From contig JAZSQZ010000044.1 in the NCBI GenBank assembly GCA_045538175.1, positions 5,031-69,030 on the forward strand: a stretch of 64,000 nucleotides of DNA. Direction: 5' to 3'. Origin of the DNA: Clostridia bacterium. GTDB lineage: Bacteria > Bacillota > Clostridia > Christensenellales > UBA1242. This document shows positions 11,913 to 29,399 of the stretch, piece by piece. Within the stretch, counting starts at the first letter, position 1. Each line of letters opens with the position of its first letter. The notes beneath the pieces are model-generated. The model was not told where the DNA came from and did no database searches. It saw only the letters and a program-made list of their open reading frames with translations. The position numbers and the translations under genes were made by a program.

Positions 11913-11916
11913 AAAT

Positions 11917-11948
11917 AAAAACGACTAAGAAAACTTAGTCGTTTTTTT
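11917..11948. terminator. Bidirectional intrinsic terminator between the convergent pnuC and ispH
   Basis: ACGACTAAG-AAAA-CTTAGTCGT, flanked by an A-run and a T-run. Confidence 0.8.
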
Positions 11949-12825
11949 AATTTAGAATTTTGTTTAGGTTGTCTTTAACTTTTAAAATATCTTCTTGCAT
12001 AGTTGAAGCGCCTGCTGTTATGCCGATTGTTTTTGCAAAAGATAATTCTTCTTTGTTTATATCAAAAACTTCATTAGGGTCTTCAATCTTGTATGTTTTT
12101 GTGTAGTTTGATATGTTTAAAAACAACTCTTTTGTGTTGCTTGAGTTTTTGCCCCCTATTACAAACATAATGTCACATTTTTTTGCTAACACTACGCTTG
12201 CATCGTTTATGTTTTTTTGTGCATTACAAATTGTGTTTTTAAATTCAAAAACCTTATTTTCTTTTTCAAGTTTGTTTTTTATTTTTTCGATAAACAAACT
12301 TGCCTTGTCTTTTGAAAATGTTGTTTGCACTGCAAGAAAATATTTATCAAAACCAAGGTCAATATTTTCGATTTCGCTTTCGTCTTCAATCAAAATTGGG
12401 TTTTCGCACCACCCAGATGTGCCCCTAACTTCAGGGTGTATAGGTTTAGCGTCAAAACCGTGTTTTCCGATTAGAATAATCTTAAAACCTTCGCTTTGTT
12501 TTTTCTCGACAAGTTTGTTTATTGCCAAAACGTTTGGGCAAGTGCAATCAAGATATTTTATGTTGTTGTCTTCAAAATATTTATAAGTGTCCTTTGGTTC
12601 TCCGTGGGCACGAATAATAACAAAGTCGTCTTTTGTTATATCTTCTAAGTTTTCTTTTGTTAAAGCGCCATTTTCTTCTAGGTGTTTTTTTACTGTTTTA
12701 TTGTGTAAAATTTCTTTAAACAAAACGACGTTTTTTTCTTTTTTTATTGTGTTAAAAGTTTCTGTTATTGCTCTGTTTGAACCATAACACAATCCGCATA
12801 CAGGGGATATTTCAATGTTTACCAT
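11947..12825 (-). CDS. ispH: 4-hydroxy-3-methylbut-2-enyl diphosphate reductase (IspH/LytB)
   Basis: CGLCYGSNRAI ... IIRAHGEP ... DCTCPNV ... ICNAQ ... VIGGKNSSNT ... AGASTM. Start moved to the MVNIEISP ATG at 12823-12825, which has RBS AGGAG. The longer track ORF overlaps the divergent promoter. Confidence 0.9.
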   Translation of the reverse strand: MVNIEISPVCGLCYGSNRAITETFNTIKKEKNVVLFKEILHNKTVKKHLEENGALTKENLEDITKDDFVIIRAHGEPKDTYKYFEDNNIKYLDCTCPNVLAINKLVEKKQSEGFKIILIGKHGFDAKPIHPEVRGTSGWCENPILIEDESEIENIDLGFDKYFLAVQTTFSKDKASLFIEKIKNKLEKENKVFEFKNTICNAQKNINDASVVLAKKCDIMFVIGGKNSSNTKELFLNISNYTKTYKIEDPNEVFDINKEELSFAKTIGITAGASTMQEDILKVKDNLNKILN

Positions 12826-12876
12826 AATTACTCCTACAATCATTATACAAAAAATTTTCAAATCATAAAACAATAA

Positions 12877-12905
12877 TTGACAAAATTTTACCCCTTTTTT
12901 ATAAT
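12877..12905 (+). promoter_or_regulatory. Perfect consensus promoter TTGACA-17-TATAAT; -10 ends 6 nt before the ATG at 12912
   Basis: TTGACA at 12877-12882 and TATAAT at 12900-12905. No Shine-Dalgarno sequence between the -10 box and the ATG. Confidence 0.7.
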
Positions 12906-12911
12906 GTCCGT

Positions 12912-13556
12912 ATGGATACAATTTATATATTATCGCAAGTGTTTGTTGTGCTTGCGTATGCTTTTAATTTTTCAACATATCTGTTTAGAAACAGAACATT
13001 GATTGTTATATGCAATCTTATATCTTCTTGCCTTTCAATTGTTTCACTTTTCTTTTTGTCAGCCTGGACAGGTCTTGGAAATGTCGTCATCGGGGTATTA
13101 AGAAACGTTGCATTTATGATAAGAGATAAGGCCTGTGGTAAGGCAGACTACATCACAAAAACCGATTGGTGTATTTATGCAGGCATCGAAGTTGCAACAA
13201 TAACTGTTGGAATTTTAACCTATGCCGGAATTCCAAGTATTATTGCAATGTTTAGTATGTCGGCAAACTCACTTGCAATAACTCAAAAAAATCCTTTCCT
13301 ATATAAAATTGTAAATATCCCTGCAAGTCTTACATATGTTGTGTATAATTTCTTAATCACATCATATTTTGGTGCAATTTGTGAGACAGTTATATTTATA
13401 ACAATCATTGTAGGTATCATAAGAGACAGCATATATTATAAGAAACAAAACGTAAGTCCGTTTGACTTAAAAGCAATAAATAAACTAAAAAAACAACAAG
13501 AAACAATAGAAAATATATCCCCAAAATTAGAAGAAAATGTGGATAATTCCCTTTAA
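12912..13556 (+). CDS. Small polytopic membrane protein (possibly YgjV-like)
   Basis: 214 aa with about 6 hydrophobic helices and a hydrophilic C-terminal tail. The family assignment is only a guess. Confidence 0.55.
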   Translation: MDTIYILSQVFVVLAYAFNFSTYLFRNRTLIVICNLISSCLSIVSLFFLSAWTGLGNVVIGVLRNVAFMIRDKACGKADYITKTDWCIYAGIEVATITVGILTYAGIPSIIAMFSMSANSLAITQKNPFLYKIVNIPASLTYVVYNFLITSYFGAICETVIFITIIVGIIRDSIYYKKQNVSPFDLKAINKLKKQQETIENISPKLEENVDNSL

Positions 13557-13622
13557 AATACTGAAAAGTAAGGAAAATCACAACAAATTTTAAAAAAACT
13601 TCAACTTTTTTTAAAAAAGGGG

Positions 13623-13651
13623 TTGACAGATACTAGATATGGTGGTATTCT
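13623..13651 (+). promoter_or_regulatory. Promoter TTGACA-17-(TGg)TATTCT
   Basis: TTGACA at 13623-13628, 17-nt spacer, TATTCT at 13646-13651 preceded by TGG. Confidence 0.6.
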
Positions 13652-13657
13652 TTCTTT

Positions 13658-13807
13658 CGTTGGAGACACGACTTTGAAAACTAAATTAAGCAAAAATCTA
13701 CTATTTATTATTATGGAAACACTCAGCATATAGAAACTATATGTAGATTTTTTGTGCAATCAAAAAGTTTAGAACATCTGCATATGGTTATGCGGGTGTT
13801 TTTTTTA
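13658..13807 (+). ncRNA. Candidate structured 5' leader or small RNA: boxA-like element plus two terminator-like hairpins
   Basis: ACTTTGAAAACTAAATTAAG lies at about 13670-13689. Hairpin 1 is AAAATCTAC (13693-13701) / GTAGATTTT (13743-13751) plus Ts. Hairpin 2 is ACATCTGCATA (13774-13784) / TATGCGGGTGT (13789-13799), 11 bp including G-U pairs, followed by T8. Confidence 0.35.
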
Positions 13808-13875
13808 TTGTTATATCCGTATTTAGCAGACAATTGAAGTTTTAAAAGTGTTTTTGATAAAAGGAGAAATTAGAG

Positions 13876-15792
13876 ATGCAAAAGAACACATTAACTGAAT
13901 TAACACAAAAGGGAAAAGAGTTATTCTCAAAATTGGCAAAGTCCTATGCTTATAATGGTATAGATTTGCTTATGACCGACTTAGTACCACAAAGGGGTGG
14001 TATTTTAAGCGAAGCTGTTGACGAAGGTGCAACAGCATATATCGCTGGTGGAAAAAACGGACAACAATTCTTCAAGAATATCCCACAATTCTCACCAGAC
14101 TTTGATACATTCACAAGAAGAACAAACGACACCGTTGGCGAAATTGTAAGTTGTTTGCCACAAGATTTGGTTAGCGATAAAATCGGTTTGTTTTTGTATG
14201 TTCCTATGGGCGACCGTATGTGGAGTAAGGCTGTTGAAAGTCACACAGGCGCAAAAGTTATCGCAACAAACGAACAAAACTTTAGAAGTTACTTCGAAGA
14301 AAAAACAAACTTAAGCGATATCTTAAGGGCTGCTGGTCTTGAAAAACACATTATTCCTTCAGAAGTTATAAGACACGACAGATCTTTAACAAGTGAAGAA
14401 GCACAAGCATTGTACGAACAATATGCTGATGCCGATGGCAAAATTGTTGTTCAATACTGTGGCGAAGGCTGTACAGAAAAGGGTGGTGGATACAGTACAA
14501 GAGTTATCACAAGTTATGAAGAATTTGAAGGCGTTTGTGCAGAACCTAGAGATAGTTATATGAAAGTTGCAAAATTCATCACAGGTTACAACTCAAACTT
14601 GTCAATTTGCGCAGGAAACTTAGTTCCTGCAACAGGAATGTTGGGTGCTGTTAAAAACAACTTAACCGAAAGAGAAAGCCGTTTCAGTGGCGCAACAATC
14701 TATAGTTTGTTGCATCGTGCAAGGGGTATGGGAATAAACGAAAACAATATTATCGTAAATGTCCAACCAAGCACATTAAAGGTTGTTGGTGCTCCACAAC
14801 TTACATCAATCGAAACAAACGGTGTTGGCAATCAACTTAACTATAATTTCGAACCACAAATTTCAGAAGCAATCTACAATTTAGGCAACAAACTTGGTAC
14901 ACTTATGGCTATGTGTGGTAAAGTTGGCCTTTGTGGTGCTGACTTAATCATCACAAAAGATGGCGAAGTTTATGTTAACGAAATCAACGACAGACAACAA
15001 GGTCCAACCGAAAGTGCTGGTTTAAACAATGAAGCACACGGACTTCCTGCATTACATAGAACTTCATTCTTCCTTAACTTTGGCAACCTTCACAATGCAG
15101 AAATGCAATCATATTTAAGCGAAGTGGGTTCTCGCTCTCGTGAAATCTATGACGAATCATTGCGTATCCCAAGTCCTTTCTATATCAAGTTTATAAGCAA
15201 ATACAGTGGTGTTGCAAAACAAGATGTAAGAGAAGGAAATTACGAATTAGGTCAAGACTTGTTTGGCAGATGGAATTGGAACTTAAGCGAACCTGTCGAA
15301 GGTTTAGACGGTGCATTGCCTGTTGTTGACTTAAGCACAGGAAGCACAGTTGTAAATATCAACACAGTAAGTATGAACCAAGGCGACTTCTTCCCAAAAG
15401 AAACTCAATTGTTAAGAATCAATGGTGTTTCAATGCCAGGCTCTGCACCATTTAGCATAAGCAAAGATGGAAAATCAGTATTGTCAAAAGATTGGGAAGC
15501 ACCTATCGAAGCTTTGTATGAAACTGTATTAGACAGAACTCAAACACAAGCACCTATCGAAAATATGTTGGGTGAAATGGTTGACCTTCCATCAATCGGC
15601 GACACTGTTGTAGAAGAAGAGTCTGTTGAAGAAACTCCTGTAGATACTCAAGTTGACGGTCAAATGGGTATTGTTGGTATGCCAGCAGAAAACAGAGCAT
15701 ACATCAACACAATCAGTGATATGATGGTAAGAAATTCTGTTTCAGCAGATGTAAAAGTTGATACTCAAGATGGTGGACAAGGCACCAACTAA
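13876..15792 (+). CDS. ATP-grasp fold ligase-like protein with uncharacterised N- and C-terminal regions
   Basis: 638 aa, RBS AAGGAGAAA. The central part fits the ATP-grasp pattern: GKIVVQYCGEGCTEKGGGYSTRVI ... YMKVAKFITGYNSNLSI ... GLCGADLIITKDGEVYVNEINDRQQGP (E-x-N Mg site). Acidic C-terminal tail. Confidence 0.6.
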   Translation: MQKNTLTELTQKGKELFSKLAKSYAYNGIDLLMTDLVPQRGGILSEAVDEGATAYIAGGKNGQQFFKNIPQFSPDFDTFTRRTNDTVGEIVSCLPQDLVSDKIGLFLYVPMGDRMWSKAVESHTGAKVIATNEQNFRSYFEEKTNLSDILRAAGLEKHIIPSEVIRHDRSLTSEEAQALYEQYADADGKIVVQYCGEGCTEKGGGYSTRVITSYEEFEGVCAEPRDSYMKVAKFITGYNSNLSICAGNLVPATGMLGAVKNNLTERESRFSGATIYSLLHRARGMGINENNIIVNVQPSTLKVVGAPQLTSIETNGVGNQLNYNFEPQISEAIYNLGNKLGTLMAMCGKVGLCGADLIITKDGEVYVNEINDRQQGPTESAGLNNEAHGLPALHRTSFFLNFGNLHNAEMQSYLSEVGSRSREIYDESLRIPSPFYIKFISKYSGVAKQDVREGNYELGQDLFGRWNWNLSEPVEGLDGALPVVDLSTGSTVVNINTVSMNQGDFFPKETQLLRINGVSMPGSAPFSISKDGKSVLSKDWEAPIEALYETVLDRTQTQAPIENMLGEMVDLPSIGDTVVEEESVEETPVDTQVDGQMGIVGMPAENRAYINTISDMMVRNSVSADVKVDTQDGGQGTN

Positions 15793-15846
15793 TATTATAT
15801 AATTGCTTTTGTTAGTAACTAAAATTTAAAAAATTAGGAGTTAAAT

Positions 15847-16791
15847 ATGAAAGAGTTTAAGAAAGATATCGTAGTTGGTACAGACGTTGTAGGTCATCCA
15901 ATTTACATCACAAAACACACAATCGATAGCGAAAAACCAGGCAAAACTGTATATATCCAAGGTGGTATCCACGGTGGCGAAATCACTCTTCATATGATAA
16001 GGGATATTTACGATTACCTTAAAAAGAATATAAAAGCAGGAAAGGTCTTCTTTGTGCCTTTTGCAAACCCATTTGGCTGGGGTCAAAAATCTTATACCTA
16101 TACCGTTGGTAAGTTCAACAACAAAACAGGCGAAGATTTTAACCGTACATTTGGAAGCAATAGCGAAGGCAACACAAGTGTACAAATTGCAAAAGCAATC
16201 TTAAAAGAATGTGAAGAAGAAAAAATTGATTTTGCTGTTGACCTTCATACAGCACACACAAGTTTTCCACATACAATTTCTTTTAGCGAAGTTGATATGA
16301 AATTTATTAAACTTGCAAACATCGAATACAACCGTCTTTGCTACAACAGTGAAGAATACAAAACAACCCTTAACTATCAACTTACAAAAAGGGGAATCAA
16401 CAATTTCACAATCGAATGTGGCAGTCACGATAGTATCGACAAAGTTTATCAAAAACAAGTTGTCGAAGGCGTACTTAATGTTATTGCAAACCTTGGTATT
16501 TGTGATTTTACACCAACTTTGAAAAGAACAAATCAAGTTTCATTTTCAAAGGCTGTAAGTTACTTTGCTGAAATCGGTGGTATCGTAGAGTTTAACTTTG
16601 ACCTTGGCGAAAGATTCAAAAAAGGTGATGTGTTATACACAATTCACCCAGCAGATTTAGGAAAAGAATCATACAAAAAAGTTGCAGAATTTGATGGTGT
16701 TGTTTTTAGATTTGCAAAAACACATATCTATAATTCTTTTGACGAAGTTATGAGAGTGTTTAAAGACGAACACTTAACCCCTATAAAATAA
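15847..16791 (+). CDS. Succinylglutamate desuccinylase/aspartoacylase (AstE/AspA, M14-like zinc hydrolase) family protein
   Basis: GKTVYIQGGIHGGEITLH (HxxE zinc site), VDLHTAH (second His), and a C-terminal GGIVEFNFDLGERFKKGDVLYTI barrel-like segment. Starts 54 nt after the ATP-grasp gene. Confidence 0.7.
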   Translation: MKEFKKDIVVGTDVVGHPIYITKHTIDSEKPGKTVYIQGGIHGGEITLHMIRDIYDYLKKNIKAGKVFFVPFANPFGWGQKSYTYTVGKFNNKTGEDFNRTFGSNSEGNTSVQIAKAILKECEEEKIDFAVDLHTAHTSFPHTISFSEVDMKFIKLANIEYNRLCYNSEEYKTTLNYQLTKRGINNFTIECGSHDSIDKVYQKQVVEGVLNVIANLGICDFTPTLKRTNQVSFSKAVSYFAEIGGIVEFNFDLGERFKKGDVLYTIHPADLGKESYKKVAEFDGVVFRFAKTHIYNSFDEVMRVFKDEHLTPIK

Positions 16792-16813
16792 ATAAAAACC
16801 TTTTATCAAAAAC

Positions 16814-16847
16814 AAAAAAGATAAGCAGATTCGCTTATCTTTTTTTT
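16814..16847. terminator. Bidirectional intrinsic terminator
   Basis: AAAAAAGATAAGC-AGATTC-GCTTATCTTTTTTTT. Confidence 0.8.
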
Positions 16848-16854
16848 GTTATAT

Positions 16855-19017
16855 TTAGTTTGATACAACTCTTCTATTTAAGTTAGGAGTTATTTCTAAA
16901 GGATTTCCTTGTAGGTCAACAACTTCAACATTTGCCCAATCACTAGCATCGCCTTCGTAGTTGATTATCACATTATGTGCTACATTTCTATTGATAACAA
17001 TTTTTTCTGTTTTATCTTTTGCAACATTTAATGTTGGATATAAGGGTTGAGTGAATGTACTGTTAAGGTCTATAACAATTTCTTTTGTCCTTAAAAATGT
17101 TGCAGAAAATGCTGAGCCGTAATTTGCATATATATCTTCTTCTATCGTTACTTTTTCATTTTCTCCAAAAACAACAATATCTGGTACAGTTGCGTTTGAT
17201 AAAGAAATGTTTTTTACTTTGCCGATATGTAGTGAATTTGTCCCACCCAAAAGAGTAAGGGTTTCGACAGTTTCTGGATTATAAATTTCTAAAGTAGTTA
17301 CAAAACCTGCATATAGGGTTATATTTTTATGTGTGGTTTCTAAATGTACTTTATCGCATCTAAGGTAAAGGTCAAGGTCTTCATTTTCACAACTTGTGCT
17401 ATCATTTTTATAAACGATGCTTGAAACTCTATCGTATGAATAAATTTCTCTTAAGTCTACAAAAGTACCATCTATAAACATAGGGATTACAAGTTCGCCA
17501 TTTTTATTTCCACCAAAGAATGATAGCCAATCGTTACTTGATGGATTGCTAAGTTTTACAACTTTTCCTGCATCTCTTGTATAATATCCACCTGCAAAAG
17601 CGCCTGCAGCATTATAAGAGCTAAAAGCATCAAAAGCAAGGAAGAAATAACAACCAAGGGACGCAATACAAAGCACAAAAGGTATAACCCTATGGAAGTT
17701 AATTCTGTTAACACCATATTTTTTTCTTATTTTTGCACTTATTATTGTAAAAACAATTAGGGCAACAATCAAAATTGGGAATATTGCAAATTCTGGATAA
17801 GTTACAAATCTTGCTTTTGTTATAAGAGAAGTAAGAACCATCGCAAGTGATGACAATATTGCCAAAATTTCAAAGATACAAAGCGTAATAAAACTCTTTT
17901 TGTTTTCCTTGAGTTTTGCCATATTTGCTTTGTATGCCTGTTTTTTCTCTTTTTTGTTTTCGAACTTTTGTCGATAAGATTCTTTTCTTCTTGCAAGATT
18001 TTCGTTAAAGGCTTGTTCTCTTCTAAGTTTTCTTCTTTGATAGATATCAAGTTCTTCTTCAGGCTCGTTTGGTCTAAATGTAGGTGCAGGTTCTTCTTTT
18101 TGACTTCTAGGTTTAATGTATTTTGAAACACCATCTGCAACAGTTATTTCATATCCAAGTTTTGAAGCGTCAACACCTTGGGCATATTTATTGTTGACAG
18201 TTGGCATATCGTTTGGTGACATATCTTTAAATACAGGGATAAAACTCCTTGCACTCAATTCGTCATCAGTTCTTATTCTGTCGATAAACCTTGTCCATTC
18301 ATTTTTAACCCAAACAGAGTTTATATATTCCTTCTTTGTTCCAACAAGAATAAAAATTTCTGAAGTGTTGATTGCCTTAAATATAATTGGTTCATAGTCG
18401 CTTCCAAGTCTAGATTCAAGTGTCTTTTCTGCAAGGAAAACTTTAAAACCATACTTTGTAAGTTGGTCATAAATGTTTCTTGCAATAATACTATCTTCAG
18501 TTCTATCTCCATTAGGGTCGGTTGCCTTGTAGGAAATAAAGACATCAAAATCTTCTTCTTTTTCAAGTTGTTTTGAAATTGCTTGTTGCAACTCTTCAAT
18601 CTTTTTAACTTTGTTTTTTAAAGAATCTTTTTCTTCATCATCACAAAGGGAGAGAAGTGTTTTGTAAGTTTCGTCTTCGTAAATAGAGTTGAAGTGTGTC
18701 CTATGGCAAGTTGGCACAAGGGTGTTTGTCCTTGGGTCTTTTACATACTCAATTCCGTATTTTGCAAGTAGCAAACCTTCGTAGGCCGATTTTTCTCTTT
18801 TATCCTTTGTAATTGCAAATTCATAAGTTTTGATTGCTGCATCAAAGTCATAGTTGGCTCGTTGCAAATATGCTGTATTTAAAAGAGCTATAATTTCTTC
18901 ATTTGGCCTTGGCATAATTACGGTCGAACCACAGTGTGTGCAAACGCCAAGACTTTTGTCTTCAAGTTGTTGTATCTCTGAAGCCCCACAACAACTACAA
19001 GTTATATTGTTACTCAT
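16855..19017 (-). CDS. Zinc-ribbon / TIR-domain / 3-TM / LRR-like ectodomain protein (paralog 1)
   Basis: Start set at MSNNITCSCCG (ATG 19015-19017, RBS GGAGAAAAC) by analogy with paralog 2. Zinc ribbon CSCCG..CTHCG. TIR block DFDVFISYKATD ... SVWVKNEWTRF. Three hydrophobic helices. C-terminal repeat region ending YEGDASDWANVE. Confidence 0.75.
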   Translation of the reverse strand: MSNNITCSCCGASEIQQLEDKSLGVCTHCGSTVIMPRPNEEIIALLNTAYLQRANYDFDAAIKTYEFAITKDKREKSAYEGLLLAKYGIEYVKDPRTNTLVPTCHRTHFNSIYEDETYKTLLSLCDDEEKDSLKNKVKKIEELQQAISKQLEKEEDFDVFISYKATDPNGDRTEDSIIARNIYDQLTKYGFKVFLAEKTLESRLGSDYEPIIFKAINTSEIFILVGTKKEYINSVWVKNEWTRFIDRIRTDDELSARSFIPVFKDMSPNDMPTVNNKYAQGVDASKLGYEITVADGVSKYIKPRSQKEEPAPTFRPNEPEEELDIYQRRKLRREQAFNENLARRKESYRQKFENKKEKKQAYKANMAKLKENKKSFITLCIFEILAILSSLAMVLTSLITKARFVTYPEFAIFPILIVALIVFTIISAKIRKKYGVNRINFHRVIPFVLCIASLGCYFFLAFDAFSSYNAAGAFAGGYYTRDAGKVVKLSNPSSNDWLSFFGGNKNGELVIPMFIDGTFVDLREIYSYDRVSSIVYKNDSTSCENEDLDLYLRCDKVHLETTHKNITLYAGFVTTLEIYNPETVETLTLLGGTNSLHIGKVKNISLSNATVPDIVVFGENEKVTIEEDIYANYGSAFSATFLRTKEIVIDLNSTFTQPLYPTLNVAKDKTEKIVINRNVAHNVIINYEGDASDWANVEVVDLQGNPLEITPNLNRRVVSN

Positions 19018-19216
19018 AAAGTTTTCTCCGTTGTCATTGTAGCAAATTAAATCAATTTTGAAAACAAAAAAGAGAATATTGTTTGTTTTAGGGGGCAAAG
19101 TGTACAAAAAAACTCGAATTTTATCGAAAATTTTCAAATTAGGTCTTGAAATATTTAGTATTTGGGATTAAACTATATACACTTAACCAATTCTTTTTTT
19201 ATTTTAGGGGGTTGAT

Positions 19217-20473
19217 ATGGTAGGAGTTATTATGGCAGGCGGACAAGGCGTTAGACTTCAATCCGTAACAGGGCCATTACCAAAAGCAATGGTAAACATT
19301 AGAAACACAACCGTTGAAAATTTTGGTAAAGCTAAAGATACAATTCTAGAACATCAAATGAGAGTGTTATCCGAAAACGGCGTAACAGATTTTATTCTGG
19401 TCGTGGGTAATAAAAAGGAATATATCCAAGCAGCATTCACAAACGAAATTATTAACCGAAATATCCCAGGAAGAAACATTACAATTAGATACTTTGTAGA
19501 AGACCGTCCACTTGGTACAGCAGGGGCTTTTTGTTCGCGAGAACTTCAAGACATGATACAAGAGGACGATTTTTTATTTACTTATGCAGATGTTTTGTAT
19601 GATGTAAATATTCGCAAAATGTTCGAATTACATAAAAGGGAAAAGGCAGATGCAACTGTCCTTATCTCTCCTTGCTCTGAACCTGACGATAGACCAATTT
19701 GCGTTTGCGAAAAAGGTTCTAACATTATTTCAGGAATTATTCCAAAGCAAGGAAAAACTGATGGCCCAAGGGGTGGCGCATTCCCAAACACTCCTAAAAA
19801 TGGAATTATGATTTTAAACAAGTCTGCACTTAAACTTCTTCCAAGTCAACCAACATACTTAGATATGGAAGAAAGTTTATTAACAAGACTTATATATAGT
19901 GGTGCACACAAAGTTTGTGCTTGGAACACACCATGTTACATTAAAGACATCGGTACAGTTGATAGATATTATGAAGGTGTTTCAGAACTTGCAAGAAATA
20001 TTCCTATGCTTAGAAACCCAGACAAAAATCCACAAAGTTGTGTTATATTTAAAGCAAAAGACTTAATCACTGTTTCACCTGAAGGAATCGCAGTTTTAGA
20101 TACAGAACTTGCAGACGCAATAAAAACACTCAACGATAACGGTATTATCACAGCAGTTTATAGAGACAACCCACAAATCGCTGTTCACCCACAAGAAGAA
20201 TGGCTTATCGATACAATGCTTGTAAGAGATGGCGACGGGGCATTCTTAAACACAAAATTTGGCGAAGACCAAGTTGAAGAGTTTAACGCACAAATGGCAG
20301 AATGGAACGTTGCTCCAGAAAATATTATCCAAGTTGATATGATGCCAAAAGGTTGCTTGCTTTCACATGTGGACGGCACAAGACAAATGTTTGGCGATGC
20401 AGAAACAGCAATCAAAGATTTGTTAGGTACATATTCTATCCAAGACTTCGGTGGACAAGGCGACGACGAATAA
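19217..20473 (+). CDS. Sugar-phosphate nucleotidyltransferase with a C-terminal extension (possibly a degenerate HAD/GmhB-like domain)
   Basis: N-terminus MAGGQGVRLQSVTGPLPKAMV has the NTP_transferase G-x-G-x-R-L signature. The C-terminal ~140 aa have HAD-like spacing (CVIFKAKD ... LNDNGIITAVYRDN) but lack the DxD nucleophile motif. The C-terminal call is low confidence. Confidence 0.65.
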   Translation: MVGVIMAGGQGVRLQSVTGPLPKAMVNIRNTTVENFGKAKDTILEHQMRVLSENGVTDFILVVGNKKEYIQAAFTNEIINRNIPGRNITIRYFVEDRPLGTAGAFCSRELQDMIQEDDFLFTYADVLYDVNIRKMFELHKREKADATVLISPCSEPDDRPICVCEKGSNIISGIIPKQGKTDGPRGGAFPNTPKNGIMILNKSALKLLPSQPTYLDMEESLLTRLIYSGAHKVCAWNTPCYIKDIGTVDRYYEGVSELARNIPMLRNPDKNPQSCVIFKAKDLITVSPEGIAVLDTELADAIKTLNDNGIITAVYRDNPQIAVHPQEEWLIDTMLVRDGDGAFLNTKFGEDQVEEFNAQMAEWNVAPENIIQVDMMPKGCLLSHVDGTRQMFGDAETAIKDLLGTYSIQDFGGQGDDE

Positions 20474-20482
20474 TAAAAAATC

Positions 20483-20519
20483 AAAGCAAGGTAAAATTAC
20501 TTTGCTTTATTTTTTTTTG
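20483..20519 (+). terminator. Weak intrinsic terminator after the nucleotidyltransferase gene
   Basis: AAAGCAA ... TTGCTTT stem with a 12-nt loop followed by T9. Confidence 0.4.
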
Positions 20520-20550
20520 ATTGTATAATTATATAAAAGGAAAATGATTT

Positions 20551-21447
20551 ATGATTGATTTACATATCCACACACAATATTCTGATGGTCTTCCAACCGT
20601 AACAGAAATTTTAAAACTTGCAGAAGAAAGAAAACTTGACTATATCTCAATAACCGACCACGACGCAATCGGGGCATATGAAGAATTGAACAAAATGAAC
20701 ATTAAAGAACACTTTAGTGGAAAAATTATCTACGGGTGCGAGTTGAAGTTTATTTATAATAAAACCCAAATGGAACTTGTAGCACTTGGTTATGATTGGG
20801 AAAAATTAAATAAATCTTATTGGGTGCACGAAGAAAGTTATCACGCAAACAAAAGGGCACTCCTTAAAAATGCTATTGAAAAGGGCAAAAAAGCTGGTTT
20901 TGTTTATGACAATCTTGAATACAAGTCAAATGAAAAGTCAGAAAAAACTTTCTATTTCGAACTTTTAAAACACGAAGAAAATTTGCCTATTTTAGAAAAA
21001 TATAAGGTTAAACACGGTGGCGACTTCTTTAGAAATATTGTTGCAAACCCAGAAAGCCCACTTTATTTTGACCCAACTGATTACACTTTGGGTTTTGAAG
21101 AAGCTGTTGACCTTATTCACGAATGTGGTGGCGTTGCACTTCTTGCACACCCTTTTGGTGTTTATAAAATCGATAATCCAAAAGAAATCATAAACGAATT
21201 GCTTGCAAAAAACAAACTTGATGGTTTGGAATGTTATCATAGCAGTATGACCGAAGAGCACACAGAATATCTATTAAACTTGTGCAAAGAAAAAGGACTT
21301 TTAACTTCAGGTGGAAGTGATTATCACAATTACCCTGGTCAACACTTTGCAAAAGCACATGACGGAAGGACTGATATCCCAACAGAAATTATTTTGCCTA
21401 TCTTAAAAAGAATAGGGGATAGGGGTATCGTTGAAGGTAGTAAGTAA
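20551..21447 (+). CDS. PHP-domain metal-dependent phosphoesterase (TrpH/YciV-like)
   Basis: MIDLHIHTQYSDG ... ISITDHD ... LAHP ... GGSDYH: the PHP His/Asp motif series. Confidence 0.8.
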   Translation: MIDLHIHTQYSDGLPTVTEILKLAEERKLDYISITDHDAIGAYEELNKMNIKEHFSGKIIYGCELKFIYNKTQMELVALGYDWEKLNKSYWVHEESYHANKRALLKNAIEKGKKAGFVYDNLEYKSNEKSEKTFYFELLKHEENLPILEKYKVKHGGDFFRNIVANPESPLYFDPTDYTLGFEEAVDLIHECGGVALLAHPFGVYKIDNPKEIINELLAKNKLDGLECYHSSMTEEHTEYLLNLCKEKGLLTSGGSDYHNYPGQHFAKAHDGRTDIPTEIILPILKRIGDRGIVEGSK

Positions 21448-21894
21448 ATGAAGATTTGTATGTTAAGCGACAGTCACGGAAGAAAAAAATCAGTTTTTAC
21501 ACTTTTGTATGAAACTGATTATGATTATATCTTTTACCTTGGTGACGGACTTAAAGATATGGAAGATTTCGATGCTAAAAATGTTTTAAAGGTTTGTGGA
21601 AATTGTGACATATTTGAAGTTGCCCCTATAACACAACTTATCGAAATCGAAGGTGTTAAGTTTTTGTTAACACACGGACACGAGTTTAAGGCAAAGTACT
21701 CAGAATATGGCCTTGTAAAAGTGGCACACGAAAGGGGTGCAAATGTTGTTTGTTTTGGGCACACACATAAGCAAAGATATGACGAAGTTGATGGCATAAC
21801 TTTACTCAATGCAGGTGCTTTTAAAAATGGCGATTATGCTGAAATTATAGTTAAAAATGGCAAAATCGAAAAAGTAGATTTTAAAGAAATCTAA
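21448..21894 (+). CDS. YfcE/MJ0936-family metallophosphoesterase
   Basis: LSDSHG ... GDG ... THGH ... GHTH motifs. Its ATG directly abuts the PHP stop codon (TAAATG). Confidence 0.85.
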   Translation: MKICMLSDSHGRKKSVFTLLYETDYDYIFYLGDGLKDMEDFDAKNVLKVCGNCDIFEVAPITQLIEIEGVKFLLTHGHEFKAKYSEYGLVKVAHERGANVVCFGHTHKQRYDEVDGITLLNAGAFKNGDYAEIIVKNGKIEKVDFKEI

Positions 21895-21905
21895 AAGGAA
21901 AAACT

Positions 21906-24113
21906 ATGGAACAAAAGATAATAATGTGTAACAACTGTGGTGGAGAAGAGATTACACATATTGAAGGCAAAAATTTAGGTATATGTAAGCACTGTGGTGC
22001 AACTATTATTATGCCAAGACCAAATGAAGAAATCATAGGTCTACTTAACACTGCCTATCTTCAAAGGGCAACTTATGATTTTGATGCTGCAATAAAAACT
22101 TACGAATATGTCCTTGATAAAGACTCTCAAGAGAAATCTGCATACGAAGGTTTGTTACTTGCAAAATATGGTATTGAATATATAAAAGACCCAAGGTCAT
22201 CAAAACTAATACCTACTTGCCACAGAACACACTTTAATTCCATTTATGAAGACGATGCCTATTTATCTCTTGTTGCATTATGTGACGAAGAAGAAAAAGA
22301 AATTTTAAAAGACAAATTTGCAAAAATCGATAAACTTCAAAAAGCAATTGCAAAACAGTTAGAAAAAGAAGAAGATTTTGATGTATTTATCTCATACAAA
22401 GCAACTGATGAAAACGGCGAGAAAACTGAAGACAGTGTTATCGCAAGAAACATATACGATAAACTTACCGAAAAGAATTATAAAGTGTTCTTAGCAGAAA
22501 AAACTTTAGAAGATAGGTTAGGTAGTGATTACGAACCTATCATTTTTAAAGCAATACAAACTTCTAAAATATTTGTCCTTGTCGGCACAAAAAAAGAATA
22601 TGTAAATTCTGTTTGGGTAAAAAACGAGTGGACAAGATTTGTTGATAGAATCAAAAACGAAAACAATGGCGAAATTTCTTCACAATCTTTTATACCTGTC
22701 TTTAAAGATATGTCGCCATACGATATGCCAAAAGTCAACAACAAATTTGTCCAAGGCGTTGATGCTTCAAAAATAGGTTATGCAATCACAGTTACCGATG
22801 GCATCACAAAACTTTTAAAACCAAAAGACACAAAAGATGTTATAAAAACTTTCAATGACTTTGAAAATATTGTTGAATTTAAAAGAGTTCAAAAACAAGC
22901 AAAAAAAGAACACCATAAAAAACAAATTTCAAAACTTAAAGAAAACAAATTAAAATATGCTTTATTTTTAACTATGGAAATTTTATGTTTTGTTTTGCCT
23001 CTTGTCATGATAGGAATTTCTTTTACTCAAAAATTTCCATTTTTGCAATATTGTAATTTTTGGATATTCCTAACACTTGGTTTGTTGTGGATAGTATGTT
23101 TTGTATTTGTTTTGGTGTATAAAGGTAAAACAAAAATTTGTCAATCGGTTATAAGAATAGTTTTATCATCAATTTGTATGAGTATGGCACTTTTGTTTAT
23201 GATTTTAACTAGCGTGACTTATACTATTTATGTGGAAATGTGGGGTGGGATAAATCCTGGCAATGTGTGTGGTGTTTATTCAGGTGGATATTATAATATC
23301 GAAAATAACAAAATTACAAGGTTATATAATGTAAAACCAAACAGCGGTAATGATTTTATTGTACCAGAGTATATTAATGGTATTAAAGTAGAATTGCAAA
23401 GTATAAATGGCAATACAAAATATGAAAGTATTTATATAGACACAAAAAACATCAATAAAACAGAAAATTTTTATTTTAATGTCAATGTTGAAAAATTAGA
23501 AATTTCTGGTGAAAAAATTAACAATTTTTATTTTGATAATTATGGTTCTATTGATGAATTGGAAATTTCTTTTCCAGCAGATAGTTTCGAGTTGCACTCT
23601 ACCAAGGTTATAAATAATGTGTCAATAAAAAACAAAATACAACAATTAATTATTATAGAAGGCATTGAATCAATTGATAATTTAATATCACACCTTTCTA
23701 TAGATTCAAGTATGGATAGTTTTAGTATTACAGATTGGGAAGGAGGTACATCAATAGAAAAAGTTTCTATTAATGCTTTAGTTAATAATTTAAGACTGGA
23801 TTTACGCATTGATAAATTTGAAGTAAATACGACTATTAATGATTTAAAAATAGAGAAATTAGGTGGTTGGTATTGGGAAGAAGTAAACACTAATAATAAT
23901 GTTGAAAGATTGACAATTGAGGGTGCTTCCGGAATTAAAAAGATAAAAATTGGAGAGAATATTGACTACATAAAAATTACTGCATATAATGTTAGTGGAA
24001 CTGGAATAGTTGTTTGTTTTGAAGGGGATGAAACTGAATGGAATGCTGTTGAAAAGGATATTCCAGATTACGTTCTCCCAGAAATTACAGTTTTATTTAA
24101 TCAATCAATATAA
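21906..24113 (+). CDS. Zinc-ribbon / TIR-domain / 3-TM / LRR-like ectodomain protein (paralog 2)
   Basis: Zinc ribbon CNNCG..CKHCG. TIR block aa ~157-300 (DFDVFISYKATD ... SVWVKNEWTRF; Glu241 = nt 22626-22628). TM helices at about aa 351-373, 383-405 and 416-443. Repeat-rich C-terminus ending FEGDETEWNAVE. Starts 12 nt after the yfcE-like stop. Confidence 0.8.
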   Translation: MEQKIIMCNNCGGEEITHIEGKNLGICKHCGATIIMPRPNEEIIGLLNTAYLQRATYDFDAAIKTYEYVLDKDSQEKSAYEGLLLAKYGIEYIKDPRSSKLIPTCHRTHFNSIYEDDAYLSLVALCDEEEKEILKDKFAKIDKLQKAIAKQLEKEEDFDVFISYKATDENGEKTEDSVIARNIYDKLTEKNYKVFLAEKTLEDRLGSDYEPIIFKAIQTSKIFVLVGTKKEYVNSVWVKNEWTRFVDRIKNENNGEISSQSFIPVFKDMSPYDMPKVNNKFVQGVDASKIGYAITVTDGITKLLKPKDTKDVIKTFNDFENIVEFKRVQKQAKKEHHKKQISKLKENKLKYALFLTMEILCFVLPLVMIGISFTQKFPFLQYCNFWIFLTLGLLWIVCFVFVLVYKGKTKICQSVIRIVLSSICMSMALLFMILTSVTYTIYVEMWGGINPGNVCGVYSGGYYNIENNKITRLYNVKPNSGNDFIVPEYINGIKVELQSINGNTKYESIYIDTKNINKTENFYFNVNVEKLEISGEKINNFYFDNYGSIDELEISFPADSFELHSTKVINNVSIKNKIQQLIIIEGIESIDNLISHLSIDSSMDSFSITDWEGGTSIEKVSINALVNNLRLDLRIDKFEVNTTINDLKIEKLGGWYWEEVNTNNNVERLTIEGASGIKKIKIGENIDYIKITAYNVSGTGIVVCFEGDETEWNAVEKDIPDYVLPEITVLFNQSI

Positions 24114-24117
24114 AAAC

Positions 24118-24150
24118 AAAAAAGATAAGTGATTTCACTTATCTTTTTTT
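24118..24150. terminator. Bidirectional intrinsic terminator
   Basis: AAAAAAGATAAGTG-ATTT-CACTTATCTTTTTTT. Closely resembles the terminator at 16814-16847. Confidence 0.8.
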
Positions 24151-24622
24151 ATTCATCTTTATTATTTATTTGCATTGAGTATGCTATGTTTTTTAGTCTA
24201 AACCCAAATTTTTCGTAAGTTTTTATGCCAGGTATGTTTTCTTCATTTACAGTTAAGTATAGGTCAGTGCAGTTGTTTTTTAAGGCATACTCTTTTACAA
24301 ACTCTAAAAGTTTTGTGCCGATTCCTTTATGCCTAACGGTTTTGTCAACACACATAGCGTCAATTGATAATTGTTTTCTAAATCGCATAATAGGGTTTGC
24401 TTTTTCTTTAATATCAAATGTTATGTATCCTACAATTTCTTCATTTTCTTTTGCAACAAAAATTTGTGTGTTTTCAATTAAGTTAAAAAATCTTTCTTTA
24501 TCTATTACAATTTCGCTGGAAACAAATATGTCAGGTCTCCAACCGACGTGAAGTTCGTGCACTTGTACGGCAAGGTTGTTGACCTTTTCCCAGTCGTTTT
24601 TATTTGGAACAACAATTTCCAT
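24149..24622 (-). CDS. GNAT family N-acetyltransferase
   Basis: 157 aa. Acetyl-CoA-binding pattern VDKTVRHKGIGTKLLEF ... YEKFGF. Confidence 0.8.
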   Translation of the reverse strand: MEIVVPNKNDWEKVNNLAVQVHELHVGWRPDIFVSSEIVIDKERFFNLIENTQIFVAKENEEIVGYITFDIKEKANPIMRFRKQLSIDAMCVDKTVRHKGIGTKLLEFVKEYALKNNCTDLYLTVNEENIPGIKTYEKFGFRLKNIAYSMQINNKDE

Positions 24623-24634
24623 TTTAGTTTCTCC

Positions 24635-25099
24635 TTAATTTTGTGGATTTGTTGAACCAAAACCCCCTTTTCTAACGACGGTTGATTCAACATCATCATC
24701 TACGGTCAAGAATTTAAAGAAGAAGATTTGACCGATTTTATCTCCTTTCTTTATGTGATAAGTTGTTTTGTTTAGGTTATGAAGCAAAAATCCAATGTTT
24801 CCGTCGTTGCTCTCATTATCTGCATAATCGCTTTCAATTATGCCGATACCATTTGCAAGAATAATTCCTTTTTTGCCCAAACCACTTGTTGAAGCAAGAA
24901 TATATCCTTCGTCGTGGTTGCAATATGCTTTAAAATTTATAAAAACAAGTTCGGTTGATTGTGCTTCAATGTCAATATCAATAGGTGAAAAGCAGTCATA
25001 ACAGACTGCATATTTTGTTGCCCTATAAGGTTTCTTTAGTTCTTCTTTTTTCACACCATACTTTAAAAATTCGTCTTTAACTATCTCAAACTTTCTCAT
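24635..25099 (-). CDS. dut: dUTP diphosphatase (trimeric dUTPase, YncF/YosS-like)
   Basis: GIGIIESDYADNES ... IKKGDKIGQIFFFKF ... RKGGFGSTN, parallel to the B. subtilis YncF motifs. Confidence 0.8.
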   Translation of the reverse strand: MRKFEIVKDEFLKYGVKKEELKKPYRATKYAVCYDCFSPIDIDIEAQSTELVFINFKAYCNHDEGYILASTSGLGKKGIILANGIGIIESDYADNESNDGNIGFLLHNLNKTTYHIKKGDKIGQIFFFKFLTVDDDVESTVVRKGGFGSTNPQN

Positions 25100-25252
25100 A
25101 ATTTCTCTCCTTAAAGTATTGTATCACACATAGTAAAAGTAGTCAAAGTTTATAAATTGTTGCTTTGCACAAATAAATATTTCCTAAAACTCTTTTATTT
25201 TACAATACAAAAAATTTTTAGTGTGATATAATTTTTCTATTAAGGGGATAAA

Positions 25253-28200
25253 ATGGAAACAGAAGAACTTTACGAGAAACTCTTTAACCTAAGAGAAAAG
25301 TTAAAAAGAAAATTTCAATCAAACGGCAGAATGCCAAACATCTGTAGTGACGAATCTTTAAGAGAAATCGCAACAAGAGCACCACGCCAAAAAGATGACT
25401 TGCTTGGTATCGGTGGAATAGGAGATACCTTTGTCGAAAAATATGGCGACTTTTTTATGGTCTATCTTAATCAATATCACAGAAGCCACGTAAAACTTAC
25501 AGAACTTAAAAAAGAAGTCAAAAACACACTTAAAAACTTAGAAAACAGACTTGTAAACATAAGCAAGAAAAATCGTCTTTTATATATGGGCAAAATTCAC
25601 AGCAAATATGCTTACGATATGTTTTGTGATAATGACGAATTTAATGATTCCGTTGCAGGGCTTTTAATGGGCAAACTCTCAAAACTCAACATAACTGCTG
25701 CAACTGACGACATTGAAGAAAAGGAAAGAAGATTTAAAAAAGTCTTACCTTTAATTAGAGAAGTCAACAAAGAGTTTAGAGAAAGTGGACAGTATGATTT
25801 ATATATTGGCTATCCTTTTGTTATGGGTAAAACTAAGGGCGAAGACTTTAATGTTAGGGCACCACTTATGTTGTTTCCTGTAACATATGAGCGAAAAGAC
25901 CAAGATGTTATCTTAAGATTAGACAAAACAAAAGACATTATGTACAACAGCAACCTAATCTTGATGCAAAACAAATTCTTAAACAAAAATGGGGAACTTC
26001 CAAATCATATCTTAGAAGAAGTTAACACACAAACAATCATCGAAGATATGAAAAATTTTTACGAAACAAACGATATTACGCTTAACATAACAGATAGTTC
26101 CTACATAAATCAAAAGTTAAACGATATCAAAGCAGACGAGTTTCCAAAGTTTAACTCCGGCGAGTTTCAAGTTTTGTCTAGTGCAGTTTTAGGTAAGTTC
26201 TCACTTTACTCAACAGCACTTCAAAAAGACTTTAAAAAGATTATCGAAGGCGACGAAATCAACACAACTTTAAACGAACTTATTTCAAATATGGATTCAA
26301 TCAATGTTTACGACGAAGATTTAACCGAAGACGAAACTGTTGAAGAACCATATATCACTTTCCAAGAAAACAATATCAGCTACATTAACGACCTTAACTC
26401 TTCTCAAGAGCAAGCCATTATGGCAATTGATAAAAACGATAAACTTGTTATTCAAGGCCCTCCGGGAACAGGTAAATCACAAACAATCACCTCACTAATT
26501 GCTGATGCTGTAAACAAGGGTAAAAATGTTTTGATGGTTTCTCAAAAGAAAGCAGCGCTAGATGTTATTTATTCTCGCTTGGGTCACCTTTCAAAATTTG
26601 CAATTATGTTAAACGATGTTAAAGATAAAGTTGGTTTTTATAATCAACTTAACAACTTGTTTAACTGTGATAAAATTTTTAAGTTTGAAAGATTAGCGTA
26701 CGAAAAGTTGTCAACAAACATTGACACAAATATTAAAAACTTAGAAACGATTGCAAACAAGTTATACACATTTAAAACTAATGGTGTTGGCATATACCAA
26801 ATTTATCAAGATAGTTCAAACAACACCTTTAAAACATCACAACCTTTTGAAAATGTTTTTTATCAAAACACAAATCAAAAATTGTTAAGTGTAGGCTATA
26901 GTGAACTTAAAGAAATTAAAGAAAAGTTTGAAAATATTGATATTTTGCAAGCAGGCATTGATTTTGCAATTGCAAATGAAAATTATGGTTGGCTTGAAGA
27001 TGTCAAAAAAGATTTATCACTTTTTGACTTTAACAATATTCAAGCAGAGTTTGAAAAGTTTGCAACATCTCAATTAGAGTTTTTAAAACTAGGCTTCTTT
27101 AAGCGTCTATCAAAAAAAGGCGAACAAAAAAGAGCTTTAAAACAAATTTATAAAACATATTTTAACAAGCGCAGAAGTTTTAAAGAGATATTTAAAAATC
27201 CACAAAAACTTGCTGACGGCATAAAACTTTATGATGATTATCAAAACACAAAACTTGTAAGTGCTTCATTTAGCGAAAATGAAAAACTTTATGTTTCAAC
27301 TCTTGCAAAAATTCATATGCAAGATAGCGCAGTTGCAAAAAATGATTACTTATTCGACTTTATTACAAGTTGTATCACAAAGCAATTCGAAAATCAAAAC
27401 CGTGATGTTTTTGTAAATATTTCTAACTTTAATTATATTAGAGATTCAATTATCGCTTGCATAAATGAGAAAAAAGAATACACAAAAGAGAAACTTAAAA
27501 GCGTTGTTGTTTCTACATACCGAAAGGAACTTTTAAGGTCAAAGAGATATTTCGAAATTTGCAGGCAACTTGAAAGCACAAGAAAGTGGGATATTACAAA
27601 GTTCTTAAAGAAATTCGACTTTGAATTGTTCAAAGGTGTAAAAGTTTGGCTTATGACACCAGAGTCTGTTTCAGAAGTTTTACCACTTGAAAAAGGCCTT
27701 TTTGATTTGCTTATATTCGATGAAGCATCACAAATTTATATCGAAAGGGGTATCCCTGCTATTGCAAGAGCAAAGAAAGTTGTTATTGCAGGCGACCACA
27801 AACAACTTCGTCCTTCAAGTTTAGGCTTTGGAAGATTAGAATACGAAGACGACGAGATGAGTGAAGAAGAACTCGAAACAAACGCAGCCCTAGAAGAAGA
27901 AAGTTTGCTTGACCTTGCAAGATTTAAGTATCCATCAGTTATGCTTAATTATCACTATAGGTCAAAGTACGAAGAACTTATCAATTTCTCAAACTATGCC
28001 TTCTATAAAGGACGCCTTAATGTTTCGCCAAACATTGAAAAACCTGCTACACCACCAATCGAATTTATCAAAATTGATAATGGTATGTGGGTAAACAGAT
28101 GCAACAAGGTTGAAGCTGTAAAAGTTGTAGAAACAATCAAAAACTTCTTAAAAACTAGAAAGAAAAACGAAACATTAGGTGTTATTACATTTAACACAAA

Positions 28201-28981: not shown

Positions 28982-28983
28982 TA

Positions 28984-29011
28984 AAAAGAGCACACATTTG
29001 TGCTCTTTTTT
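28984..29011 (+). terminator. Intrinsic terminator after the helicase-nuclease gene
   Basis: AGAGCACA-CATT-TGTGCTCT followed by T6. Confidence 0.85.
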
Positions 29012-29096
29012 ATCAAAATTTTTATAAAAAATAGTGTTTTGTTTGGAAAGTTTTTAAGTTTTGTTTATAATGGAGTTGTAGAAAGGAGAAATATTT

Positions 29097-29399
29097 ATGA
29101 TAGACGATTACAATTCAAATCCCATGAAACTCTTAACAGGGTTATGTGCAACTGTTATGACAGTTGTTTATGGATTATTCCTAACTAATATGATTTGGGG
29201 ATATATTCCTGCTGACCACTTTGTTTTGCCACTTATCACAAACCTAATGTATTATGGTCCACTTACATTGTGTGCTGTTTGTTCTGTTTCACTTGTTTGG
29301 AAGAAATCACTTTTAATTAAAATTGCCTTTATTGTTGTTTGGGCTTCAATTATTATCTTCTCATTCTTCCCATCAGTATTTGTAGAACTTTTTGCATAA
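29097..29399 (+). CDS. Small 3-TM membrane protein (paralog of 30768-31103)
   Basis: 100 aa, RBS AAAGGAGAAA. Shares its C-terminal pattern (IIIFSFFPSVFVELF vs VIIFQFFPGVWAEF) and overall helix layout with the 111-aa protein. Confidence 0.65.
   Translation: MIDDYNSNPMKLLTGLCATVMTVVYGLFLTNMIWGYIPADHFVLPLITNLMYYGPLTLCAVCSVSLVWKKSLLIKIAFIVVWASIIIFSFFPSVFVELFA

Follow-up and report, generated by a model that had tools for sequence, protein, structure and literature searches.

Paralogous membrane TIR proteins with a variable, predicted extracellular domain are candidate outside-in receptors of Clostridia

A 64,000-nucleotide (nt) stretch of a Clostridia bacterium contig (JAZSQZ010000044.1), which we call the window and to which all window coordinates refer, carries two divergent genes, A and B, that encode paralogous membrane proteins with a TIR domain before the membrane helices and a solenoid-like domain after them. 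We put the chances at about even that A and B are single-chain receptors that would work from the outside in, switching on a TIR domain that cleaves nicotinamide adenine dinucleotide (NAD+). This is our best reading of the evidence on diversity and fixed fusion, since an invariant head of the enzymatic type is joined by a fixed membrane fusion to many binding domains, and since the outer part is diversified by three routes, namely paralogues, cassette exchange and retroelements. An earlier note, made from the letters of the window alone, had proposed a Toll-like-receptor-like layout for the two proteins. Here, we follow that proposal up with profile searches, structure models and the comparison of related loci.

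Results

Genes A and B share one layout

16855..19017, minus strand: gene A, a 720-amino acid (aa) membrane TIR protein with zinc ribbon, TPR, TIR, three helices and predicted beta-solenoid
21906..24113, plus strand: gene B, a 735-aa membrane TIR protein, paralogue of A

Gene A starts at an ATG at 19017 that is preceded by a GGAG ribosome-binding site, and a promoter-like site lies at 19064-19036. A longer open reading frame (ORF), reaching a TTG start at 19137, is probably not used. Gene B begins 12 nt past the stop of a gene for a YfcE-family phosphodiesterase and has an AAAGGA ribosome-binding site. The two proteins are 47% identical over their whole length, and the identity falls from 74% in residues 1-305 to 28% in the linker and membrane part and 17% in the C-terminal domain. 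A and B are paralogues with one shared layout; an ORF check, Pfam matches and a structure model confirmed the common N-to-C domain order that had been read from the translations.

The cytoplasmic head carries a TIR domain of the enzymatic type

18913..19005, minus strand: A zinc ribbon, aa 5-35 (CSCC..CTHC), four Cys invariant in 55 relatives
21921..22013, plus strand: B zinc ribbon, aa 6-36 (CNNC..CKHC), invariant Cys and strands at 16-35 in the model
22026..22367, plus strand: B helical region, aa 41-154, one TPR and a conserved hairpin (GIEY..PTCHR), from the TPR match, invariant residues and the model
18118..18543, minus strand: A TIR domain, aa 159-300, from Pfam TIR_2
22374..22814, plus strand: B TIR domain, aa 157-303, from Pfam TIR_2 and fold matches
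18298..18300, minus strand: codon of A Glu240 at the TIR catalytic position, within the translation SVWVKNEWTRFI, with the same motif as B
22626..22628, plus strand: codon of B Glu241, the TIR catalytic position by alignment to the Glu of RUN1 and L6, invariant in 55 relatives

The head opens with a zinc ribbon whose C8, C11, C27 and C30 were invariant in an alignment of 55 relatives and which appears as three short strands in the AlphaFold model of B. In the helical stretch that follows, the family profile matched a consensus TPR at residues 45-80, and in the conserved hairpin and helix after this TPR the residues P103, T104, C105, H106 and R107 are invariant in the same 55 relatives.

To the TIR domain, Pfam TIR_2 (PF13676, cut-off 28 bits) gave 48.9 bits for A (E 1.1e-12, aa 159-284) and 48.2 bits for B (E 1.9e-12). 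The full-length AlphaFold model of B, with a predicted local distance difference test (pLDDT) of 84, yielded TIR-STING 6wt6 (probability 1.0), SPARTA 8isy and SpbK 9phb as its top Foldseek matches; their E-values were modest because the query is 735 aa long. Sequence and profile searches of the PDB with the full-length query or the family profile found no TIR, and usable PDB sequence alignments came from the isolated TIR segment only. With the N-terminal 155 residues as the sole query, a search yielded nothing but short fragments.

When the isolated TIR segment was used in phmmer, NSVWVKNEW of B aligned with RSRWCLDEL of RUN1 and DSKWCLMEL of L6. The catalytic Glu of plant TIR NADases we take to be E100 in RUN1 and E135 in L6, and by this alignment E241 of B and E240 of A sit at the catalytic position. 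Both the Glu and the surrounding WxxNEW motif are invariant in the 55 relatives. Judged from sequence, this is the Glu of the S-x-W-x-x-x-E position of enzymatic TIRs, and NAD+ cleavage is the predicted function of the domain. Every part of the head named in the earlier note, from the zinc ribbon and the TPR-like stretch to the TIR domain and the Glu at nt 22626-22628, with its codon checked, was upheld in this way.

Three membrane helices are predicted to separate the head from an outside domain

17632..17889, minus strand: A three transmembrane helices, aa 377-462, from hydropathy and Lys/Arg counts
22962..23204, plus strand: B three transmembrane helices, aa 353-433, from hydropathy and model helices

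A Lys-rich helical linker precedes three membrane helices in both proteins. Our hydropathy scan placed them at residues 377-395, 410-428 and 444-462 of A and at 353-371, 386-404 and 415-433 of B, in agreement with the AlphaFold helices of B (348-372, 383-409 and 415-436). In A and B, Lys and Arg together number 5-6 ahead of helix 1 and 3-6 in loop 2, against 1-2 in loop 1 and 0 past helix 3, and these residues are likewise in excess N-terminal of the membrane part in relatives with three helices (49 of 49) and with one (29 of 29). No signal peptide is present at the N-terminus, which opens with the Cys4 zinc ribbon. Because of the charge bias, the surface-type domains that stand after the helix in relatives and the missing signal peptide, the predicted N-in/C-out topology, with the TIR inside and the solenoid outside, is well supported, and so the three helices and the orientation first proposed for them both stand.

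The predicted ectodomain is an LRR-like solenoid at the fold level

16858..17631, minus strand: A predicted extracellular domain, aa 463-720, from topology, identity and substitution ratios
23205..24110, plus strand: B predicted extracellular beta-solenoid, aa 434-735, from a model with pLDDT 91.6 and fold matches

The ectodomain of A is 17% identical to that of B and 95% identical to that of its orthologue P0012, which has the same gene context. Modelled alone with nine sequences, the C-terminal domain of B, of about 290 aa, came out as a confident all-beta solenoid (pLDDT 91.6; predicted template modelling score, pTM, 0.87). Its best fold matches in the PDB were leucine-rich repeat (LRR) proteins of the BspA type, namely PcpA 4cp6 (E 9e-4) and the Faecalibacterium surface protein 4gt6 (E 2e-3). 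Weaker matches went to LRRs of plant NLR proteins and of Toll-like receptors (TLRs) and to some beta-helices, with template modelling (TM) scores of about 0.2 throughout, and in a viral structure library LRR and FNIP-repeat proteins matched at similar scores. No LRR appeared in the ectodomain of A or B in Pfam, even when matches with E as high as 1 were admitted, and a comparison by hhalign with true LRR_5 domains returned a probability of 2%. Of the LRR/BspA-like repeat domain first described for A and B, what stands is an all-beta solenoid with borderline BspA-LRR fold matches. On the evidence of the model it may fairly be called LRR-like at the fold level only, and homology to LRR_5, and with it membership of the BspA LRR family, is not established.

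The C-terminal tail shared by A and B, (Y/F)EG..(D/E)W, proved to be a genuine common feature, with E706, G707 and W712 near-invariant in 11 close relatives. The tail of B, CFEGDETEWNAV, resembles the end of the LRR_5 domain in relative P0088, YYGGSAQEWNKI.

Searches with the ectodomain only (window 23214-24110), by phmmer against 1.84 billion representatives and by a word-indexed search, gave zero matches and missed the parent protein too. Since local phmmer with the ectodomain did find five relatives, among them P0003, P0002, P0007 and P0004, these nulls reflect limits of the tools and are no proof of an orphan domain.

The outer half is exchanged as a cassette and is a retroelement target in relatives

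22923..24083, plus strand: cassette of linker end, helices and ectodomain of B, with zero DNA similarity to locus L097 and flanks about 98% identical

Between A and its orthologue in locus L003, the ratio of nonsynonymous to synonymous substitution rates (dN/dS) rose from 0.03 in the head through 0.25 in the helices to 0.53 in the ectodomain, from small counts. By this measure, purifying selection on the cytoplasmic module is strong. The two halves also have discordant histories, as judged by sequence identity. For relative P0004, identity to B is 99% in the head but drops to 40% across the helices and to 26% across the ectodomain. The nearest counterpart of its outer part belongs to P0007, and the heads of P0007 and P0003 are identical.

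A blastn comparison of the window with L097 located the point of exchange. The two are 97.7% identical over 13314-22922, have no match over 22923-24083 and are 98.4% identical over 24084-30523, a pattern which indicates that the linker end, helices and ectodomain were swapped together as a single cassette while the flanks stayed conserved. Copy A of L097 is intact; a pseudogene was rejected because the break in its ORF is an assembly N-run.

All family genes were checked for a repeat of their last 600 nt, and three loci carried the adenine-specific mismatches of a diversity-generating retroelement (DGR) on family genes:

L026, 334-4761: adenine-mismatch repeat, 20 of 20 mismatches adenine-specific
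L029, 9995-13241: adenine-mismatch repeat, 17 of 20
L059, 6040-12994: adenine-mismatch repeats on two targets, 17 of 18 and 17 of 20

The DGR of L026 is complete, with a target gene that ends in a C-terminal DUF6273, bAvd, a template repeat and a reverse transcriptase. In L059, one template repeat is common to both targets and no reverse transcriptase lies beside it. No DGR variable or template repeat was found in the window. DUF6273 has been described as a variable domain of the C-type-lectin-like kind in receptor-binding proteins of phages (PMC11792537; bioRxiv 10.1101/2024.10.15.618418). The reading of A and B as receptors gains support from the swap of a cassette between near-identical strains and from the retroelement-diversified outer domains of relatives.

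A and B belong to a large family of gut and rumen Clostridia

A first search for relatives returned 705 matches, and a scan with one genome per species found family members at no fewer than 590 places, at least. A and B are therefore paralogues within a wide family and not the isolated, self-contained pair for which they had been taken. Among the matches listed, nearly all hosts are Clostridia of the gut or rumen, for instance Acutalibacteraceae, Oscillospiraceae, Ruminococcaceae, Lachnospiraceae and Anaerovoracaceae, and the source databases label the relatives generically, for example as 'TIR domain-containing protein'.

The 305-residue head is complete in every relative. What follows the head differs between relatives: there may be additional TPRs or ankyrin repeats, a membrane part of 0, 1, 3 or 5 helices comes next, and the outer domains stand last; the zero-helix counts are overestimates, as the filter hid helices inside profile-matched regions, for example in L026. 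The domains found past the membrane helix in relatives are BspA-LRR/LRR_5 (E 2e-75), DUF6273, Flg_new, RCC1 and SH3_3.

Two to five family members lie within 10 kb in 27 of 78 species-representative loci. Tandem pairs occur in L005 and L017, and the divergent A/B pair is seen again, in unchanged gene order, in L096 and L097. The related genome L001 has B only, in the same place, and lacks A and two genes beside A. A pair of genes at window 13876-16791 (plus strand), for an ATP-grasp-like protein (638 aa, weak Pfam match) and an AstE/AspA-like deacylase (314 aa), accompanies copy A in the window, L003, L096 and L097, and both are missing with A in L001.

Relatives numbered zero in 50,697 phage records and 72,556 plasmids and 2 among 2.9 million viral contigs, and with the family nearly absent from these sets we rejected a phage or plasmid origin. 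Some relatives adjoin integrases or relaxases, a point that we count in favour of a receptor, as we do the small Rx4-6H proteins beside others.

Gene neighbourhoods in the window and in the wider family

20551..21894, plus strand: PHP phosphoesterase (20551-21447) and YfcE-family phosphodiesterase (21448-21894), from Pfam and NCBIfam
20483-20508: terminator upstream of the PHP gene
16814..16845: two-way terminator hairpin 3' of gene A
24118..24149: two-way terminator hairpin 3' of gene B

PHP, YfcE and B look like one operon because there is a terminator upstream of the PHP gene and none before B; the three genes are probably co-transcribed, with B last. The same PHP-YfcE-B order is found in L001, L096 and L097. 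The 3' flanks of A (16808-16857) and B (24112-24161) share a 50-nt stretch that is 82% identical and holds the same terminator hairpin, and for this reason the duplication that created the pair apparently took the terminator along.

The neighbours of A and B in the window encode sugar-phosphate nucleotidyltransferase-like, PHP, YfcE, GNAT, dUTPase, AstE-like and ATP-grasp-like proteins. Other three-helix members likewise have unrelated housekeeping neighbours and no partner in common.

The wider family has a setting of its own. A Band_7_1 SPFH gene on the same strand adjoins family members in 51 of the 85 loci examined, and a gene for a four-helix membrane protein of about 234 aa, also on the same strand, does so in 42 of the 85. 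A conserved operon in L005, L009 and 49 more loci (e.g. L040, ~7000-14530) holds the SPFH gene, the membrane-protein gene and 1-5 TIR genes on one strand; its Band_7_1 SPFH protein ends with SHOCT or a zinc ribbon, and the membrane protein of about 234 aa has no family match. Tblastn of both partners found no homologue of either in the window, and the three-helix subfamily is without both partner genes. The earlier note had named a uniform setting of the homologs in housekeeping operons, for example of the cell envelope, with no link to defence or signalling, as a finding that would speak against it; the SPFH and membrane-protein neighbours of the wider family are of the envelope type and go part of the way towards this, and the window lacks them. 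We also rejected the idea that the three-helix block arose by fusion of the small membrane protein encoded in relatives' operons (hhalign probability 9%).

In some SPFH operons there are also genes for small proteins (about 185-230 aa) that contain an Rx4-6H motif (L009 12822-13379; L005 4165-4800; about a dozen loci). These could be RNase effectors, given their faint HEPN matches (Pfam pEK499_p136, E 0.0018; PADLOC CARF_HEPN, E 0.005).

Two genes downstream of B, at window 25253-28981 (plus strand), lies a gene for a 1242-aa helicase-nuclease with HRDC, DUF4011, AAA_11/AAA_12 and an MTES_1575 nuclease, which matches PADLOC PDC-S37 (E 3e-166) and Hhe (E 1.7e-94); L097 has this gene and L001 lacks it, which makes it a candidate defence gene that varies between strains. 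Genes for a PnuC-type nicotinamide riboside transporter (window 11004-11912; L001 4651-5466; L013 17185-17833; L019 6713) and NUDIX genes (L001, L004, L013 and L019) lie within 10 kb of several three-helix members. This proximity would be notable for an NAD+-cleaving enzyme, but much of it is gene order that related genomes have in common, and it may be nothing more. Full-length RelA/SpoT genes are found a few kb from family members in at least four loci of different lineages (L004 5788-7983; L039; L090; L009), and that of L004 ends 18 nt upstream of a TIR gene; the proximity seems to be beyond chance, from small numbers and crude, heterogeneous ORF clusters. Lastly, a 1792-aa ORF at window 4164-9542 (plus strand) lies upstream of spoIIP, and its counterpart in L001, of 4858 aa, is without a clear family.

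Discussion

How a receptor of this layout might work

Were A and B receptors, the fast-evolving outer solenoid would be the putative ligand-binding part. A surface ligand, such as a phage tail or receptor-binding protein, the surface of another cell or a host molecule, would gather or rearrange the receptors, and this would bring the cytoplasmic TIRs together so that an active site is assembled, as in other TIR enzymes. TIR enzymes need self-association, and for this reason clustering would be the simplest control of the TIR. The assembled domain would then cleave NAD+, which would be depleted or converted to an ADP-ribose-derived signal, and growth arrest or another protective response would follow. 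We only infer that the domain is active as an enzyme and that clustering switches it on, and likewise what kind of ligand binds and what happens to the cell.

A role in defence is plausible, without support from the window's gene context. More tentatively, we regard it as possible that the whole family is a bacterial counterpart of pattern-recognition receptors in gut Clostridia, with outside-in TIR signalling and an outer domain diversified by cassette, paralogue and retroelement routes.

Several points weigh against A and B as outside-in receptors. The topology was derived from an in-house hydropathy script and AlphaFold helices. The ectodomain dN/dS is below 1 with few substitutions, and variability alone is no proof of sensing because adhesins and phage receptors under escape selection vary too. 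Models of defence TIRs gave weak matches far below their cut-offs, with NCBIfam ThcB4 at 30.8 bits against a cut-off of 220 and PADLOC ThsB1 at E 5e-5 over part of the model, in A only. The window genes lie amid housekeeping genes (ispH, dUTPase, GNAT, spoIIE and tilS), whose order is preserved, with B in its place, in a related genome, and a search near A and B for a Thoeris-type effector gene (SIR2/SLOG, Macro-TM, caspase-like etc.) found none; the pair does not lie in a defence island. In the wider family, the SPFH and small-membrane-protein neighbours suggest membrane organisation or stress over immunity.

Alternative readings

The last of these points leads to the alternative that survives best, that A and B are cell-envelope or adhesion proteins whose outer domain binds the wall, the host or a partner surface and whose head is a non-catalytic docking platform for SPFH proteins. 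We hold this to be unlikely, with a good deal to be said for it. Besides the two recurrent neighbours there is a precedent in Bacillus subtilis, where YdjG and YdjH anchor the SPFH protein YdjI at the membrane (PMC8581546) and YdjG carries a zinc ribbon (bioRxiv 10.1101/2021.02.15.431232), so that a zinc-ribbon protein and its partner recruit an SPFH protein. The LRR_5, Flg_new and SH3_3 outer domains of relatives are of Gram-positive surface-protein types, and the housekeeping context of the window genes fits as well. What speaks against it is that the window has no SPFH homologue and the three-helix subfamily neither partner, that the Glu and the WxxNEW motif are invariant and would be unneeded by a pure scaffold, and that no PspA gene is prominent among the recurrent neighbours.

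The outer domain could also be a target of phages or host antibodies that varies to escape them, above a TIR head that is constitutive or works from the inside out and is deaf to outside ligands. Cassette replacement and discordant halves would fit escape equally well. We consider this improbable, however: what is known of DGRs whose variable domains are C-type-lectin-like is that they generate diversity of binding rather than serve escape (PMC11792537; bioRxiv 10.1101/2024.10.15.618418), and the fusion of an invariant TIR head to diverse outer domains across hundreds of species is hard to explain without communication between the two.

Least probable of the three is a multi-gene system of the Thoeris kind, in which the membrane TIR would make a nucleotide signal that activates a separately encoded effector: the weak likeness to the ThsB1 and ThcB4 models, the Rx4-6H proteins with faint HEPN matches in some relatives' operons and the co-transcription of B with two phosphoesterases, in principle able to degrade a nucleotide signal, are outweighed in our view by the lack of a SIR2/SLOG, Macro or other known effector beside A or B, by a ThcB4 score so far under its cut-off and by phosphoesterases that look housekeeping (Rnm-like PHP, YfcE) and are unlinked to other subfamily members.

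Implications

To our knowledge, the bacterial TIR systems characterised so far all respond to events within the cell. If the family is indeed a counterpart of pattern-recognition receptors, it would give bacteria their first known example of immune signalling from the outside in through a TIR, with a phage or competitor sensed at the surface before entry. If A and B are outside-in receptors, bacteria would couple surface recognition to NAD+ metabolism or signalling, a Toll-like logic with the ancestral, enzymatic TIR. The hosts of the family are mostly uncultured gut and rumen Clostridia, and because the family is common in these abundant bacteria, its ligands, be they phages, neighbouring bacteria or host molecules, could matter to microbiome ecology. 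Cassette exchange and retroelement targeting would also amount to natural libraries of binding domains on a simple enzymatic read-out.

Our literature search found no description of the family, nor of any bacterial TIR with an extracytoplasmic sensor, in keeping with the earlier note, which knew of no such system. What is new is the transmembrane, outside-facing sensor on a TIR; the fusion of a TIR effector to a variable sensor is of a known kind.

Comparison with known systems

The wider family resembles the ydjGHI (samGHI) genes of B. subtilis at the level of gene content, as both pair a zinc-ribbon membrane protein with a small membrane protein and a Band_7_1 SPFH protein, whereas the SPFH and small-membrane-protein partners are missing from the window. 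We know of no TIR domain in YdjG. BspA-type LRR proteins (LRR_5; PcpA and F. prausnitzii 4gt6) provide the top fold matches of the ectodomain and have a similar end motif; A and B differ from them in having no Pfam LRR_5 match, the hhalign probability of 2% and TM-scores of about 0.2.

With Thoeris ThsB, TIR-STING, SPARTA TIR-APAZ and SpbK, A and B share the TIR fold and the catalytic Glu, and TIR-STING, SPARTA and SpbK are their top structural matches. These immune proteins are cytosolic and respond to internal cues or act with a partner effector, whereas the sensor candidate of A and B is extracytoplasmic, no partner lies nearby and the matches to defence models are weak.

Toll-like and IL-1 receptors have the same succession of a variable binding domain outside, one or more membrane spans and a TIR inside. 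Family member P0088 has a true LRR ectodomain, and the fold matches of the window ectodomain include TLR2 and TLR4 at poor scores. A and B are inverted, however, with the TIR at the N-terminus and three helices in place of one, their ectodomain has no LRR at the sequence level, and they keep the catalytic Glu of enzymatic TIRs, whereas the TIRs of animal receptors are scaffolds. The Toll-like logic of the first proposal holds for the order of outside domain, membrane and inside TIR and fails for the direction of the chain, the helix count and the LRR, which is one of fold only. The resemblance is an analogy, as we read it, and not shared descent of the whole architecture.

Closest to A and B are the DGR-diversified 'antigen sensors', in which a hypervariable C-type-lectin-like sensor is joined to effectors that include TIR (Dore et al., PNAS 2024, PMC10907252). 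These sensors, mostly cytoplasmic, come from multicellular Proteobacteria and Cyanobacteria, where they belong to STAND-NTPase or MoxR-vWA systems (PMC10907252). Both sides combine a variable sensor with a TIR effector, and three family members are retroelement targets. The A/B family differs in that it has no NTPase, is found in Clostridia and has its variable domain on the predicted outside, and the window genes, which are without a retroelement, vary by cassette exchange. Taken together, the antigen sensors are the closest published idea, realised in protein families different from that of A and B.

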